A stretch of 64,000 bases of DNA from sequence record OR983334.1; one strand, given 5' to 3'. Shown piece after piece: positions 33,755-45,458 of this stretch; positions within the stretch are counted from its first letter, which is position 1, and the number at the start of each line of letters is the position of its first letter. The DNA comes from Escherichia phage 1-6bf. A model generated the notes under the pieces. That model saw nothing but the letters and a program-made list of their open reading frames with translations. It made no database searches and had not been told where the DNA came from. Position numbers and translations under genes: made by a program.

Positions 33755-34013
33755 CTGTCTCTCCCTTGCTGTAATCTTTAAATGTTTCATATTTGTACGA
33801 TGCAAATGCTCTGAAGAATAGCCAACCTAAACTGCTAACATCCATCGTAACATCAAAATCTGTTTCATCATCCAAGTCAACCAGACGACCAATACAAGTG
33901 AGTTCCATAATCTCACCATCTCCATACTTATCAGAGGATTCTTTGATGAAGGCACATTTCTCCGTTCTGAACCGTGGAATCAACTCTGATAAAAAGTCTA
34001 ATACTAAATTCAT
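33747..34013 (-). CDS. hypothetical protein
   Basis: 88-aa ORF, GAGGAG RBS. Confidence 0.4.
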   Translation of the reverse strand: MNLVLDFLSELIPRFRTEKCAFIKESSDKYGDGEIMELTCIGRLVDLDDETDFDVTMDVSSLGWLFFRAFASYKYETFKDYSKGETDE

Positions 34014-34156
34014 AATTCTTCTCCTCTGAATAAGAGTATAAAGGGCACATCATAAGACCTACCCGTAAAGGCACCCTCACATTGACACCCGTGAGCATAC
34101 CTGTATTCATTTTCGTAGTCTTCTTCAGAGAAGCTACCATATTCATCTTCAGTCAT
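34010..34156 (-). CDS. small acidic protein
   Basis: 48 codons (MTEDEYGSFSEEDYENEY...), AGAGGG RBS, ATGA overlap with next gene. Confidence 0.3.
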   Translation of the reverse strand: MTEDEYGSFSEEDYENEYRYAHGCQCEGAFTGRSYDVPFILLFRGEEL

Positions 34157-34178
34157 AAATCCCTCTGATAAAGTTAAG

Positions 34179-34235
34179 ACATAAAGGGGACTTCATGTTA
34201 AGGCACCCCCATAAAGGCCATGTCACGTTAAGGCT
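34179..34235. repeat. two tandem copies of a 27-bp direct repeat ATAAAGG-N10-GTTAAGGC
   Basis: ACATAAAGGGGACTTCATGTTAAGGCA and CCATAAAGGCCATGTCACGTTAAGGCT, read directly. Confidence 0.4.
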
Positions 34236-34434
34236 TATCCACCCACGTACTGAATCTCAACTTACCACATTCCTTACACTTCCATGTTGATAGATACAAA
34301 CCATGTATTCTTTCATCCCCGTAAGCTTTACGAAGAAGATAGTAATTGTGCTTACACTTCATCCGTCTAAATACTTTAATTAGATTCATTAAGTCCTCTC
34401 TTAAGCTTAAATCCACAACATAAAGTTGGGGCAT
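34228..34434 (-). CDS. small zinc-ribbon protein, first gene of - strand block
   Basis: 68 aa with CxH ... CxxC pattern (MKCKHNYY ... WKCKECGK). Confidence 0.4.
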   Translation of the reverse strand: MPQLYVVDLSLREDLMNLIKVFRRMKCKHNYYLLRKAYGDERIHGLYLSTWKCKECGKLRFSTWVDKP

Positions 34435-34559
34435 ATTCTTATATATAAGAGTTTAAAATTCTGATTTGGCCGAGTGGGGCTAGCCGCTTCCCGCGCGTTT
34501 CCTAAAAAGGGGGAGTCCTCATTTAAAAAAGGGTTATTGGCAATGCCTTTACCTTCCCT

Positions 34560-35050
34560 TTCAACGTTCCACCTTTCCCCGTGCCTACTCCCCGTAGTTA
34601 TTCCCCCGTGTATACTACCCAATACATTACCTACCCGTTTATTTAGTTCCCCTTTAAAGGGTGAGAGAAAGGCTAGCACTGTATAAACTAGTACAGGCAC
34701 AACCATAACAGGTCTGATAATACCGTATTGTTACCGTTCCAATGGCAGCGTTAGCGTCGCATTCCCCCCACAGTTTGAGTGTAAATAGTTTCAATAGTAA
34801 TGATTATGAGTGCAATAATGATGTATGTATTAATTAAGTGGAAAGATAGTAATTAACAGTTATTATATTCTTTTATTACTTTCTTTTTTCAGCGTACATG
34901 AGCGTAGCGAATGGTCTTTGATGTTTGAGTTATACAATTATTTAAGTGGTATATTATTACCGCACTATCTTGCATGTTTCCCCGTGGTCTGTCCTGCGGT
35001 TGTTGTATCCCCGTTTGTCCTGGTCTGTTGGTCTGTTACCCGTAGTGTTA
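34560..35050. repeat. repeat-rich non-coding region (candidate genome terminus/packaging or origin region)
   Basis: tandem TCCCCGT-containing units at about 34576-34640 and again at about 34975-35045, GGTCTGT repeats, AT-rich stretches; no credible ORF. Confidence 0.4.
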
Positions 35051-35154
35051 TAAAGTAACAATAAGAAGTAAGCTGATTCTCTGAGTATGGAAAGTTTAGT
35101 AAATTAAATTCCTTTAGTTTTCAGTAGGATGCAAGAAAGTTAGAAAATAGATGG

Positions 35155-35182
35155 TTGACAGTCTTTTCCTTTAATATATAGT
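35155..35182 (+). promoter_or_regulatory. sigma70 consensus early promoter P1
   Basis: TTGACA-16 nt-TATAGT with A-rich upstream tract, 39 nt upstream of first early ATG. Confidence 0.6.
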
Positions 35183-35220
35183 TGTCGATAGTTGGTTGAA
35201 TTTATCTAAGGAGTAACGAA

Positions 35221-35718
35221 ATGGCTAAAGCAATGCAGGTAGTTAATCTGGCAAGTTATGCACTAGTTGCAGCGATTGGTGTTAGTGCACTGGTCACATC
35301 TCTTTCTGATAAGGCTATCGCTAGTCCTACTCCTACTCCTGCAACTGATGCGGCTAGTGTCTTCTCTAGTTCCATCAATAAGGGTTGGATGATTTGTAAC
35401 GGTGCTGATAGTGATGGCACTTCCATCGTGTTAAAGATGAAATTTAGCAACGTTACTAATGATGGTGTTCTCTTTCAATCTAAAACGCTAGATAATCAGC
35501 CTAACAGTGATTTGGTGCTTAAGCGTACCGATAACGATATGGATATGGTGACATTTGGCACTGTACAACGTTATGAAGACGTTAAAGCCGTTACTAATCT
35601 TGTGAGTTATGGTCCGGTTAATGAGTCGATGATCGCCACAACTGTTTACAATAACGCTGACAACGCTGTTTATACTGTTCACGTTAATTTAGCCAACTGC
35701 ATTAAGGCTAGTAAGTGA
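35221..35718 (+). CDS. early secreted/membrane-anchored protein
   Basis: AAGGAG RBS; N-terminal hydrophobic segment VVNLASYALVAAIGVSALV. Confidence 0.55.
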   Translation: MAKAMQVVNLASYALVAAIGVSALVTSLSDKAIASPTPTPATDAASVFSSSINKGWMICNGADSDGTSIVLKMKFSNVTNDGVLFQSKTLDNQPNSDLVLKRTDNDMDMVTFGTVQRYEDVKAVTNLVSYGPVNESMIATTVYNNADNAVYTVHVNLANCIKASK

Positions 35719-35754
35719 ATAAATTAATTTGCCAATCTTTTGGGAGTATAAATA

Positions 35755-36006
35755 ATGGCTATTAAAGAAGTTGAATTATCTAACGACTTTTCTTGTTTTG
35801 TTGGCGATACTGCTATCATGTTTAATACGCTTGATGGTCAGCTTATCGTGCCTATTATCACTTTTTGCAAAATGGATTTTCAGTCAGCTAAAAAATGGTT
35901 GAAATTTGCTGGCCTTGAAATTACCCGTGCTGATTTTCGTGACATCTATATCAAAGGTGATTTGTCACTGGCTAACCTGTTAAGTGAAAGATTGATACAT
36001 GACTAA
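35755..36006 (+). CDS. early hypothetical protein
   Basis: 83-aa ORF with GGGAG RBS. Confidence 0.5.
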   Translation: MAIKEVELSNDFSCFVGDTAIMFNTLDGQLIVPIITFCKMDFQSAKKWLKFAGLEITRADFRDIYIKGDLSLANLLSERLIHD

Positions 36007-36253
36007 AGAGCATAGCTTTACTATTCCGACTCACAATTATGGTGAGATTGATTTCTCATATACTGATGACTCTGACAAGTGTCTAATCTTGTTTATTGTC
36101 GGCGATAATATTAAGACGGTGAGCTTTCCCGCTGTTGCTTTGATCATGGATACCCTCCTAGCTGGTCAGTATTTGGCGCAACGTCGGATTCTCTTATCGC
36201 TGGAAGAAATCGAACTGCTCAGAGTAGCACTATTTAAGGGTAAAGGCAACTAA
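35999..36253 (+). CDS. early hypothetical protein
   Basis: 84-aa ORF overlapping stop of upstream gene. Confidence 0.45.
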   Translation: MTKEHSFTIPTHNYGEIDFSYTDDSDKCLILFIVGDNIKTVSFPAVALIMDTLLAGQYLAQRRILLSLEEIELLRVALFKGKGN

Positions 36254-36452
36254 TGATTCATGATTATTTTTGGCGTTGCTTGTTCGTTGTTACAGTGGCG
36301 TTATTCGTCGCTGACATGCTTTATTCTTACGTTCTTTAAGGTCTGTTGTGCTGTTTTTGTTTTTTGTTTGTCGTGGGCTTCATTTCTTTAAACTATTTAC
36401 TGATTGTTGCCGCTCTCGATTTGCTTAATCTCAATATTAAAGGTTAATTGCT

Positions 36453-36818
36453 ATGTGGTTTATTAAATTCGTCGTTAAAACGATTGTAGGCTTCTTCCTT
36501 GTCGTTCTCCTGTTAGGTGTCCTGCTGTCAGCTATGGGTAGCGTTAAGGCTGCAACGTTCTCCCCTGCTACGGTTGACGGTTTACAGTGCACCTATATTG
36601 TAGAAAACTATGACACTGGTAAAAAGTCACCTAAAGTTATTATTTTACATGTAAATGATTTCGATCATGTACAATCATATGATAAAACTATTCAACTGGT
36701 AAATGAAACCACTGGTAAGCAAATTACGGTCGATCACTTGATGCGCTCATCGTTGACGCTCTTTGATGAGTCTATGAATGAAATGGCATCCGGTAACGGT
36801 CAATGTGTAAATCCATAG
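36453..36818 (+). CDS. early membrane/secreted protein
   Basis: N-terminal TMD/signal (FVVKTIVGFFLVVLLLGVLLSAMG); AAAGG RBS. Confidence 0.5.
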   Translation: MWFIKFVVKTIVGFFLVVLLLGVLLSAMGSVKAATFSPATVDGLQCTYIVENYDTGKKSPKVIILHVNDFDHVQSYDKTIQLVNETTGKQITVDHLMRSSLTLFDESMNEMASGNGQCVNP

Positions 36819-36893
36819 GCTTAATCTTTCTTCTGTATTGTGCCGTAGTCATGCCTATGGTCATAATCTATCTGATTCTCTAATCCTTCCTGT

Positions 36894-36921
36894 AAGCCTC
36901 CTAGTGAGGCTTTTCTCTTTT
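36894..36921 (+). terminator. rho-independent terminator
   Basis: AAGCCTC-CTAGT-GAGGCTT hairpin + TTCTCTTTT. Confidence 0.5.
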
Positions 36922-37201
36922 ATGAGGTGAGTGTATGCCTTACTCCCTTTTAGCTCGTTGTGATGCGTTTTAGGCCGCTAAATATCGCTTTACAAGCCGT
37001 TTTCTATGATGTATCGCGTGCGCCTGCTCTTTTACCTTCCTATAGTGAAAAAGTTTAAAATAATTTGCTTTACCCTATTGCAATCTCATCTGATTAGCGT
37101 ATACTTCATTTCATCGGGTACGATGTAAAACATACAAGGCAAGAAATTGCCCCGCTCTTTAAAAATCAGGTTAGAAAGTGAAAATATTCTCAAAAAGAGT
37201 A

Positions 37202-37230
37202 TTGACACCGAAAACAGCCTGATATATAGT
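37202..37230 (+). promoter_or_regulatory. sigma70 consensus early promoter P2
   Basis: TTGACA-17 nt-TATAGT, A-rich UP-like tract upstream. Confidence 0.65.
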
Positions 37231-37649
37231 GAGCATAGTCAGCGATGACTTAAAAAATCCCGCTCTTTAAAAACTTATCATCTTGCCCTTTCGCATAGAT
37301 TCACGCGAGATAAGGGAAAGGAATTAAAAGAAGATGATAAAAAGAGTTGCAAACGTGGTTAAAGTAGTCCATACTAACCACAAGTTAGCAGATACACCGC
37401 TAACAAGTTCCCAAATCAACGTATCGCGGGAAAAGTGGCACATAGTGCAGCGAGTAGTTCGGGTGTAGGCGGCCCGTTAATGAATAAGTAAGCCTTAAAT
37501 GTGACAGTGATTAGCAGACACTCTAAAAGGCTAACGCTCTTTAACAATATGAATCATAAGTTAAGCATCACCGCTTAATCTTCAATCAAATAAAGCTGAT
37601 TGATATATCCTCCCAATAGCGGGAACGACGAAAAAAGATTAAAAAGCGG

Positions 37650-37678
37650 TTGACAGCGAAAACAACATGATTCATAAT
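37650..37678 (+). promoter_or_regulatory. sigma70 consensus early promoter P3
   Basis: TTGACA-17 nt-CATAAT, A-rich UP-like tract upstream. Confidence 0.65.
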
Positions 37679-38598
37679 GAGCATCACTTAAGCAAATCAC
37701 CGCTTAAGGAAAGCGTAACAACGGCTAACAGTTGCATAGTGTGAGAAAGCACACTGATAGATTTACCGCTCTTTAATAATTTAAACATTCTCCTATATCG
37801 GTTGAATATGCTGGATGATAATAACCATCGGAAAGCATACCAGATAAAACGGCGTAAAACTCCCTAAATTATCAGGGTAAACAGTTTTACATTCCCTTAC
37901 TGGAAACGTCACCACTGGTAAACGGATTCATTGAGTGCACGCAAAGGCTTAAGCTAATCGCCCACGGTTAAGGGTAGCGGCGGTCATCGCTAACAAGGCG
38001 CTACAGTGAAAGAAGTTAATCAGGGTAGGCAATCCCGACGAATTAACGCCCAATTGAGGGCGGCGGGGAGTGGTTAAAAGTGGCAAATTGCTATTTAACA
38101 ATAAGGTTTAGTGTGAACGTTTACGATGTGAACGGCTTGAGATTCATCTTATGATGAAAGTACATAGTCGGGTAATGTAGTAAACTCGCTGAAAGATATA
38201 AAACGTCGGAATATTAGGCGGTTAGTGACTCTTTCGCAATAGTATCCCGTAGTGGGCGATGACTAGCGATAGAGAGCTGATATAAAAGGATAGGCGAGAG
38301 CGAAAGCAAAGTGGACGATATTGCCGACGGTTACAATAATGTAACTAATTAGAGTCGGACACACAGCCTTATTGTGATGATTGATCATCGCTATCAGGTC
38401 GGCTTCGTTTATAGCGACTAATTAAAGATACCAGATGAAACATCACGGATAAGGGGGCGGCAAGGTTAACTCCTGATAAGACCGCCCCGCTTACCTATAA
38501 CTACTTAACAACGAGTGGTTATAGTTAAGTTAATAGTGACTTAAACAAGCTCATAGAGAGCGGGGCAATAGCGCCCTTACAATTGAAAGGTGAATATC

Positions 38599-39498
38599 AT
38601 GGCTAAAATCTTTACTCTGGTTAACGAATCCGGTTTTAATGCTCTGGCTAACAACATTCGCAGTAATAACGCGGCGATCAAACAAGATGTTTCTAACTTC
38701 CTGTTAGGGCACTTACAGCACTTCCGCAGTAATGGTAAGAAGCTGGACGTATTGCAGGCGGCGGTTGACTTCTTGTTAACTGAACGTTTCCGTGATATGG
38801 ATGTTATTGCCACTGCAATTACTTTCTTAACTCCTATCAAGTTTAACACTGATGCGGCAAACGGTCGTAAAAAGTGGATTAATCTGGAAGGTGAAGCGAA
38901 AGCGAAAGAAGATGCGAAAGAAGCGCAAATTAAGGCCAAAATGGAACAAAATCGAGCTCGCTGGTCAAATGCTTTCGAAAATTTTGCCCTCGGTCGTGAA
39001 ATTGAAGTCGATAACCCTAACTTTTACAAGGGTTGCAATGACAACGTAGCGGCACACCTGCAAATACCTGCGAAAAACAAGGAAGATTTTAATCAGGATA
39101 TTTACGCTTTAGTTGAACGCTTGAATGCAATCCGTATCGAAGCCAAATTGCTGGCTGATGAGCGCAACGGCGCTACTAGCGATAATACTATCGCCTTAAG
39201 TGAAGAAGTCGGCAAGGTTAAAAAGTCTTTCGACTCACTCATCAAGAAAGTAACGGCCTCAACGGTAGCGATCTCCGATGACTATCTGATGAACGCATCA
39301 AGCAAGGAATTAGAATCCCTCGATTCATACGCTGATGAAATGGAAAAGACTATCGCAGCTATGCAGGAGAAGTTAGAAGGACTGCGCAGTCGTATCTCTT
39401 CAACGGTTGCTACCCGTACCGAACAAGCGGCGAAAGCAGAAGAGGAAGAAGTATTGCGTAAAGCGGCTGAAATTATGGCGGCACGCCAAGCGGCATAA
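38599..39498 (+). CDS. early protein, alpha-helical/coiled-coil
   Basis: 299 codons, AAAGG RBS, followed by terminator. Confidence 0.6.
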   Translation: MAKIFTLVNESGFNALANNIRSNNAAIKQDVSNFLLGHLQHFRSNGKKLDVLQAAVDFLLTERFRDMDVIATAITFLTPIKFNTDAANGRKKWINLEGEAKAKEDAKEAQIKAKMEQNRARWSNAFENFALGREIEVDNPNFYKGCNDNVAAHLQIPAKNKEDFNQDIYALVERLNAIRIEAKLLADERNGATSDNTIALSEEVGKVKKSFDSLIKKVTASTVAISDDYLMNASSKELESLDSYADEMEKTIAAMQEKLEGLRSRISSTVATRTEQAAKAEEEEVLRKAAEIMAARQAA

Positions 39499-45379: not shown

Positions 45380-45458
45380 GAGGATGTATCTTCCCCGCCT
45401 TCTAAGCGGTCGTTAAAGAAGTAATTGGAGTATGCAGGTTCGAACCCTGTCATCCTCG
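45380..45458 (+). tRNA. tRNA-like element (possible tRNA-Arg UCU; cloverleaf not fully resolved by hand)
   Basis: perfect 7-bp acceptor stem (GAGGATG/CATCCTC), T-arm GCAGG-TTCGAAC-CCTGT, hairpin with loop CTTCTAA; D-arm non-canonical in my fold; no encoded CCA. Confidence 0.35.

Follow-up and report, generated by a model that had tools for sequence, protein, structure and literature searches.

The early spacer of phage 1-6bf

The DNA analyzed here, a 64,000-nucleotide (nt) stretch of Escherichia phage 1-6bf (record OR983334.1; "the window"), is a Kuravirus (phiEco32-like) genome, and the region from 36830 to 38598, poor in open reading frames (ORFs), is its long spacer between early genes. 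On the upstream side, an intrinsic terminator on the + strand (36894 to 36921; stem AAGCCTC/GAGGCTT at 36894 to 36912, then the T tract TTCTCTTTT) ends a small early operon encoding gp128 to gp125 homologs. On the downstream side lies the first main early ORF with its Shine-Dalgarno (SD) sequence (38586 to 39498, + strand), encoding a 299-amino-acid homolog of phiEco32 gp124. No ORF of more than 50 codons is present on either strand between 36930 and 38590. A first-pass annotation made from the letters of the window had described both the terminator and the scarcity of ORFs correctly. Within the spacer, the 0.8 kb between the last of four boxA copies and the gp124 homolog is a large structured RNA of ∼800 nt (37780 to 38577) with ∼35 helices. 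As a whole, the spacer is probably a promoter-hairpin-boxA array that drives this RNA into the first early ORF.

The region is identical (100%) to that of Escherichia phage 1-6af and matched 96 phage records by megablast (near search) and 97 by blastn (distant search). All were Escherichia or Shigella podophages of the subfamily Gordonclarkvirinae (Kuravirus, Suseptimavirus, and Nieuwekanaalvirus), phiEco32 included. In phiEco32, the equivalent is an unannotated gap between genes 125 and 124, and most deposited genomes also leave the region blank, with short hypothetical ORFs called in a few. The SU10 genome paper names the stretch a "spacer region," places three sigma70-holoenzyme promoters inside it, and reports a putative terminator downstream of CDS121 that ends the preceding small operon. 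Two sets of sequences were compared: a close set of 21 genomes (the window plus 20 distinct close relatives, mutually 76 to 96% identical and mosaic) and a distant set of nine loci on Logan contigs, fetched through a gp124 protein search (homologs with 47 to 71% identity).

A large structured RNA

Among the options raised by the first-pass annotation for the ORF-poor region was a noncoding RNA or a long structured leader, and this one is strongly supported by covariation, the structure lying mostly downstream of the last boxA copy. In the 21-genome alignment, RNAalifold gave 231 consensus pairs in which 99.2% of 4850 cells were canonical. Changes on both sides were seen in 77 pairs, compared to 38.4 ± 3.6 in shuffled alignments (0/500 reached 77), and the covariation score was 0.271, against 0.140 in the shuffles. 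Folded as a single sequence, the RNA had a z of −5.3 relative to shuffles. An independent run with different scoring found 87 compensatory pairs and 2.1% noncanonical cells for the + strand of the RNA region, compared to 9 to 22 pairs and 6 to 7% noncanonical cells after column shuffling.

Since the close genomes resemble one another and are mosaic, a single inherited change may be counted many times, and the apparent covariation might then be an artefact of relatedness, recombination mosaics, or alignment. We give this a practically negligible probability. Controls in which the pairing partner was slid by 1 to 3 columns keep the phylogeny, yet they gave only 4 to 11 doubly changed pairs (covariation score, 0.04 to 0.07). 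In the gp124 coding region of these genomes, where variable columns are more frequent for the length, 19 compensatory pairs were counted (6.2% noncanonical cells) against the 87 of the RNA region, and two independent distant clades refold to the same architecture (see below).

The fold also has a strand. Over all pairs, G-U cells numbered 488 and A-C cells 17, and the fold is therefore selected on the promoter-transcribed (+) strand; in the independent run, the minus strand of the region gave 72 compensatory pairs with 4.4% noncanonical cells. This bears on the idea that the structure serves the DNA, as a replication origin, an R-loop or primer region in the style of ColE1 RNA II or the T7 and T4 origins, or a signal near the genome end for packaging or ejection. 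With its strong promoters directed into noncoding DNA, the spacer resembles transcription-activated origins, and the region lies ∼2 to 3.5 kb from both the switch in gene orientation and the minimum of the cumulative GC skew. A function of the DNA is nonetheless very unlikely in our judgment, given one-strand selection in the sense of transcription and a minus strand that folds worse, with twice the noncanonical cells. A primer RNA resembling RNA II would be compatible with the strand data, and we assign this replication-related role an equally slight chance. The skew minimum itself lies within the window at about 34000 to 38000 and coincides with the minus-to-plus gene switch at ∼34.7 to 35.2 kb, which probably marks the physical ends of the genome in a permuted assembly. 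GC skew was rejected as an origin marker because its switch coincides with the change in gene orientation, which confounds it and makes it uninformative.

The stretch from the last boxA to the ATG of the gp124 homolog at 38599 measures 832 nt and was present at full length in 97/97 records, with 75 to 100% identity. In the 21 aligned genomes it ranges from 826 to 837 nt, with indels that are not multiples of three. The RNA is better conserved than the gene downstream, with 91% identity to SU7 in the RNA and 74% in the gene. All of its parts lie on the + strand. Domain I (37780 to 38077) is closed by a 12-bp long-range helix (37780 to 37793/38065 to 38077) that starts 2 nt after the last boxA and spans 285 nt; its contents include a 26-bp composite stem (37908 to 37938/37998 to 38030) and the invariant core GCUAAUCGCCCACGGUUAAGGGUAGCGGCGG, which covariance model R1 (see below) also detects in four intermediate relatives. 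A hairpin (38078 to 38096) separates it from domain II (38098 to 38375, the two together occupying 38078 to 38375), whose 10-bp closing helix (38098 to 38107/38366 to 38375) shows a compensatory triple change in the distant clades, from ACAAUAAGG/CCUUAUUGU to ACAAUUUGG/CCAAAUUGU. A 3′ series of seven hairpins (38376 to 38577) completes the RNA, with covariation in 5/7 pairs of the hairpin at 38454 to 38488 and 5/10 pairs of that at 38495 to 38524. The gp124 ORF follows directly, behind the unpaired SD sequence GAAAGGTG. The only pairing that would enclose the whole (ATTTACC 5′ of the last boxA with GGTGAAT at the SD sequence) appeared in one of two folds, with G-U/A-U change only.

In the alignment of window positions 37686 to 38612, blocks of the RNA are shuffled among lineages, and the hairpin at 38133 to 38170 occurs in three alternative sequence versions that do not follow similarity elsewhere in the region. 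These patterns suggest frequent recombination inside the RNA gene, apparently with preservation of the helices.

The fold is retained in the distant loci. Each of the nine has one to three perfect boxAs, the last of them 870 to 936 nt before the gp124 homolog, and their RNA regions are 44 to 67% identical to the window; BLAST detected nothing similar inside the RNA of two loci from the farthest clade. When all 30 sequences were simply aligned with MAFFT (158 consensus pairs), 86% of the cells of the nine distant sequences were paired, compared to ∼40% with slid partners. These nine sequences contained 388 cells changed on both sides, and 111/158 pairs had at least one such change. Folded separately, two distant clades gave 215 pairs (106 compensatory) and 237 pairs (80 compensatory), with energies far below those of column-shuffled controls and with the same sequence landmarks recurring. 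A covariance model of one subdomain (R1), built from close relatives only, recovered four intermediate loci at the expected position with E values of 0.03 to 0.3.

The RNA is outside any described family and apparently undescribed in the searchable phage literature. An Rfam 15 scan at gathering thresholds gave no match in the region, and matches with E values up to 10 were noise of 12 to 20 bits. Described Rfam families considered as candidates (rRNA, group I and II introns, RNase P, tmRNA, 6S, GOLLD, ROOL, OLE, and HEARO) all fell below threshold and were rejected. ARAGORN found no tRNA or tmRNA anywhere in the window, and the RNA had no BLAST match in all complete E. coli genomes or in PLSDB plasmids. 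Peptide and DNA pattern scans of IMG/VR retrieved the same five close genomes only, and a metagenome pattern scan gave 17 matches, of which eight were close homologs and nine were due to chance. In the searchable literature, outside of which the phiEco32 promoter-mapping papers fall, no link of phiEco32 or Kuravirus to boxA, antitermination, or noncoding RNA was found.

boxA copies and the promoter array

The first-pass annotation had drawn attention to a repeated 10-mer, CGCTCTTTAA, as a motif flanking two promoters. It does occur exactly four times, always on the + strand, at 37153, 37261, 37535, and 37767 (37768 in the annotation), when by simple arithmetic a random 10-mer would be expected in ∼0.12 copies on both strands of 64 kb. 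With up to one mismatch allowed, there were 11 matches against 4.3 expected, a number that 0/100 shuffles reached. Read as CGCTCTTTAA(A/C/T)A, 4/4 copies are perfect matches to the gammaproteobacterial boxA consensus GYTCTTTAANA (PMC5725501), at 37154, 37262, 37536, and 37768. That consensus occurs nowhere else in the window, so that all four of its occurrences are on the + strand within the spacer (0.67 expected; 0/100 shuffles reached 4). boxA is the loading site for NusB-NusE and, through them, for NusA, NusG, and SuhB onto RNA polymerase. Judged by its sequence, the repeated 10-mer is this known Nus-factor antitermination signal and not a new motif.

Conservation in related genomes had been set beforehand as the check on the motif, and three to five copies were found in 20/20 close relatives and one to three in 9/9 distant loci. 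In the close relatives, boxA is confined almost exclusively to the spacer, where the flanks diverge around it; the hairpins next to boxA are swapped for other hairpin sequences while boxA stays. The notion of simple flanking did not hold, each copy lying downstream of both a promoter-like site and a small hairpin on the transcript. The spacer is built of tandem cassettes, each with an A-rich tract, −35 and −10 hexamers, a small hairpin, and boxA.

The two near-consensus promoters that the annotation had reported are both there, each matching 11/12 consensus positions and preceded, as also reported, by an A-rich tract. P2 (37202 to 37230, + strand; TTGACA-17-TATAGT) is kept in the relatives as TTGACA with 16/17 spacing and TATAAT, CATAAT, or TATAGT. 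P3 (37650 to 37678, + strand; TTGACA-17-CATAAT) is the most conserved promoter, found in 21/21 close genomes and always 110 to 123 nt before the last boxA. Two weaker sites on the same strand complete the series. P1 (37078 to 37105; TTGCAA-16-TATACT, 9/12, with an A/T-rich tract upstream) is weak in this genome; in relatives, a different promoter, near consensus, precedes the first boxA. The second site, a degenerate promoter at 37347 (TTGCAA-17-CATACT, 8/12), lies inside a 44-codon ORF and reads TTGACA-16-TAGAAT in relatives. Promoter-like sites also precede the boxAs in all three of the distant loci that were scanned for them. From its sequence, the region would be the main early transcription-control region of a phiEco32-like phage, a tandem array of predicted sigma70 promoters, two near consensus and two weaker here.

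The boxAs following P1, P2, and P3 start 75, 59, and 117 nt after the start of the respective −35, a layout shared by the relatives. P1 is paired with boxA1, P2 with boxA2, the degenerate promoter at 37347 with boxA3, and P3, together with two covarying leader hairpins, with boxA4; all of these elements are on the + strand. Cassette 1 (37139 to 37164) has the hairpin GGCAA-GAAA-TTGCC followed by boxA1, GCTCTTTAAAA, at 37154 to 37164, and cassette 2 (37239 to 37272) has the leader hairpin AGTCA-GCGA-TGACT, an A-rich linker, and boxA2 at 37262 to 37272. boxA3 (37536 to 37546), GCTCTTTAACA, is a perfect match to the consensus and identical to the T7 copy. The hairpins at 37719 to 37734 and 37738 to 37755 closely precede boxA4, in the hairpin-first order of rrn, and the second has three covarying pairs with up to four pair types. 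boxA4 (37768 to 37778), GCTCTTTAATA, ends 2 nt short of the 5′ strand of the RNA's first long-range helix, and its flank AGATTTACCGCTCTTTAA is invariant in 21/21 genomes.

A further conserved element of ∼60 nt follows boxA2 (37273 to 37333, + strand), with the hairpin CCCTT-TCGC...GCGA-AAGGG. It is near-invariant in 18 aligned genomes, BLAST with its first 78 nt matched nearly every close-relative locus, and it offers no variation that could test the pairing. Inside the RNA, at 38090 to 38101, there is an invariant boxA-like sequence, GCTATTTAACAA, with one mismatch to boxA, at the conserved C. It straddles the hairpin at 38078 to 38096 and the 5′ strand of the domain II closing helix, and it recalls the second boxA in the rrn 16S-23S spacer. 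A C3 podophage at greater distance, Salmonella phage 7-11, was also scanned, and its early region showed no boxA cluster.

Two further proposals of the first-pass annotation, a micropeptide and a long-range RNA pairing, fared less well. The 44-codon ORF exists (37334 to 37468), but it is not a conserved coding sequence. In four relatives with ∼92% nucleotide identity (4E8, KBNP1711, ECBP2, and MN05), a 2-nt insertion shifts the frame and cuts the ORF to 11 codons, and the segment 37334 to 37468 is altogether missing from most relatives. The 5′ end of the ORF (37334 to 37375) is homologous to the A tract and −35 of the extra promoter that is intact in relatives, and searches of Pfam and PHROG with the ORF returned no family. 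The 13-nt complementarity between ATTGCCCCGCTCT (37146 to 37158) and AGAGCGGGGCAAT (38557 to 38569) is exact, as stated, and reaches at least 11 nt in 10/21 close genomes; phiEco32, EK010, EP335, PAS59, and the intermediate clade lack it (up to 8 nt, mostly the boxA core). Both arms sit in local hairpins, the 3′ one with GC-to-CG covariation. An alternative "anti-boxA" pairing might form in some lineages, and long-range pairing is otherwise treated here as not supported.

An account of the region as a new promoter-flanking motif with long-range pairing between these two segments, a 44-codon micropeptide, or both can point to the exact complementarity, its persistence in nearly half of the close genomes, and a purine-rich stretch upstream of the ORF. 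It has little prospect of being right: the motif is the boxA consensus, the pairing is missing from several relatives and its arms are engaged locally, and the ORF is frameshifted in four relatives and overlaps the promoter homolog.

The neighboring gene and other observations on the spacer

The gp124 homolog and the RNA are each found in 97 phage records, the gene always directly after the RNA. No Pfam family was found for gp124, and its PHROG family is one of unknown function. An AlphaFold model (predicted local distance difference test score, 72) gave no significant match in a fold search of the PDB and BFVD. Weak rows resembling ribosomal protein uS7 (E of ∼1 to 6) are not evidence.

Suseptimavirus and PAS59-type spacers contain a conserved ORF of ∼66 to 79 codons between the first boxA and the next promoter. 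This is SU7_114 (locus L004, 1166 to 1366), present also in PAS59, NC-B, TH43, Bas88, and TH34 and missing from Kuravirus spacers, the window included. Two database labels in and beside the spacer stood out. A 55-codon ORF inside the noncoding spacer, NJ01_006 (L006, 1966 to 2133), is labeled "cathepsin L-like cysteine proteinase A," likely a misannotation. The 121-amino-acid gp125 homologs (window 36453 to 36818), which have a hydrophobic N terminus, carry a "terminase" label in several genomes and in their PHROG, likely in error as well.

Three distant loci are gene free for ∼3 kb upstream of the gp124 homolog (L048, 2005 to 5000; L049, 1982 to 5001; and L051, 1934 to 5001). ORFs of at least 45 codons are missing on both strands from the 1.5 kb that precede the first boxA of L048. 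This long gene-free stretch may hold further noncoding elements or genome termini. Elsewhere in the window, at 45380 to 45458 (+ strand), the Rfam tRNA model matched with 29.7 bits, against a gathering score of 29, and ARAGORN called no tRNA there; this may be a degenerate or tRNA-like element.

How the transcription unit may work

In the mechanism that we propose, host polymerase would start at the array promoters as soon as the DNA enters the cell. By analogy with rrn and T7, boxA would convert the polymerase, through Nus loading, to a termination-resistant complex, and this complex could cross 0.8 to 1.4 kb of untranslated RNA without Rho termination. The boxA, tethered at the RNA exit, may in addition help the long-range helices to form. 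Transcription, meeting no terminator, would run through the RNA and into the first early ORF. For the loading of Nus factors and the antitermination, what we infer comes from the biology of rrn operons, T7, and CRISPR arrays; a boxA ahead of long untranslated RNA is an established means of countering Rho and of aiding folding.

The boxA copies might instead act as a sponge that draws NusB, NusE, and SuhB off the host rrn operons (host shut-off), or as a repressive element like that of suhB. At least four perfect boxAs on transcripts from very strong promoters would put many such sites in each cell, and boxA is able to repress as well as to antiterminate (PMC5725501). Either reading is quite unlikely as the main role, since each copy is at the 5′ end of a long untranslated transcript, where the boxAs of rrn, T7, and CRISPR arrays act, and none lies within 50 nt of a start codon, unlike the suhB case. 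Sponge and antitermination roles do not exclude each other.

As for the RNA that the array would deliver, our tentative first choice, in which we place limited confidence, is an abundant immediate-early RNA that would act as RNA or as a ribonucleoprotein, possibly with gp124, in host takeover or counter-defense. With the same reserve, it could represent a new class of large functional phage RNA, trans acting and transcribed before anything else from the injected genome, by a polymerase carrying Nus factors and at rates like those of rRNA. Possible roles for a trans-acting RNA would be neutralizing host defense, seizing a host machine before any phage protein is made, or catalysis.

Several observations weigh against the picture of a promoter-boxA array serving a functional RNA. 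In this genome, P1 (9/12) and the promoter within the 44-codon ORF (8/12) are weak. The binding of Nus factors, like antitermination, is proposed solely on the grounds of sequence identity and context. No terminator precedes the gp124 ORF, and the RNA may therefore never exist free. Any role of the RNA is a guess, to which the fold of gp124 gave no clue. Finally, covariance model R1 is weak (effective sequence number, 0.82) and did not recover the most distant clade; because of this weakness, the support from the distant clades comes from the MAFFT alignments and the per-clade folds.

The next most likely role of the 0.8-kb structure after a trans-acting one, though itself rather doubtful, is that of a cis-acting 5′ leader for the early operon and nothing more. 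As such, it might stabilize the mRNA, time or tune gp124 translation, or provide a platform for RNase III or RNase E like T7 R0.3, without any function in trans. The RNA is colinear with gp124, with no terminator between, and the adjacency of the two is invariable in 97 genomes and in the nine distant relatives, at near-constant distance. T7 has its RNase III site R0.3 at the place equivalent to that of the RNA. Set against this, ∼35 helices in 800 nt are far above what is known for bacterial leaders or processing sites, and the RNA is more conserved than the gene that it would regulate. The SD sequence and the start codon are both unpaired in the consensus fold, and there is therefore no obvious occlusion switch.

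Large structured noncoding RNAs are rare, most of them of unknown function, and nearly all come from organisms that are hard to manipulate. The RNA described here belongs to the phiEco32-like phages, which serve as a model in studies of phage transcription and have relatives in the BASEL collection that can be plated on E. coli K-12 in which the O-antigen has been restored. Because these phages are tractable and have relatives that plate on K-12, genetic, probing, pull-down, and cryo-electron microscopy work is feasible. If the RNA does act in trans, this would mark the first time that an "ornate" large RNA is found in a virulent coliphage amenable to genetics and with K-12-infecting relatives. 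The transcription unit would also be a clear example from nature of the rrn strategy (strong promoters in tandem, plus boxA) being copied by a virus to make a long, untranslated, folded RNA, and the array bears on the question of whether Nus complexes are mainly anti-Rho devices or RNA-folding chaperones. In ∼100 deposited genomes, this 1.8 kb is left blank or filled with spurious small "hypothetical proteins."

Comparison with known systems

The lambda nut sites share with the spacer a boxA core (CGCTCTT...) and the use by a phage of such an element to modify host RNA polymerase. In lambda, however, the hairpin follows boxA, whereas here the hairpins are upstream of a full rrn/T7-type boxA, which can act without N. 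A lambda-type nut site was rejected as a candidate, with no boxB downstream and the sequence after boxA4 entering a long-range helix. We know of no N-like protein in these phages, no search for N having been made here.

Among large noncoding RNAs, GOLLD, ROOL, OLE, and HEARO are the nearest likenesses: they too are very large (>600 nt) and phage carried, with many covarying helices and invariant single-stranded stretches. The RNA of the window differs from them in having no Rfam match, in belonging to a virulent coliphage group, and in being the 5′ part of an mRNA operon under putative Nus control. CRISPR arrays resemble the spacer in that an untranslated RNA of unusual length has boxA at its 5′ end, where it provides escape from Rho (PMC7665894), but the cargo here is a single large folded RNA and not a repeat array.

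The E. coli rrn leaders are closer. Their nut-like site, made up of boxB, boxA, and boxC, is where the antitermination and chaperone complex of the rrn operons assembles, and boxC pairs with sequence 3′ of the mature RNA in an RNase III stem. They have tandem strong promoters (P1-P2, with UP elements), like those with A-rich upstream tracts here; the same boxA consensus; a hairpin (boxB) before boxA, the reverse of the lambda order; and a cargo that is long, untranslated, and highly structured, with long-range helices right after boxA. Unlike theirs, the cargo of the spacer is unrelated to rRNA (no Rfam match) and runs into protein genes, in a virulent phage.

In the early region of T7, tandem strong sigma70 promoters (A1, A2, and A3) near the genome end are likewise followed by boxA and then by the first early gene, and the promoters are later shut off by a small RNA polymerase inhibitor (Gp2 in T7, gp79 in phiEco32). 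The 11-mer is the same, GCTCTTTAACA occurring in T7 at 813 to 823, 63 nt after A3 and before gene 0.3, and the genetic phenotype of mutations in the T7 boxA fits with host transcription being antiterminated (PMC3709561). In T7, a single boxA follows the last promoter, and the leader measures ∼100 nt; the spacer, by contrast, has a hairpin-boxA cassette for each promoter and an 800-nt structured RNA between the last boxA and the first ORF. The promoter-boxA array of the phiEco32-like phages is, in sum, a more elaborate form of the T7 early region and of the rrn leaders.

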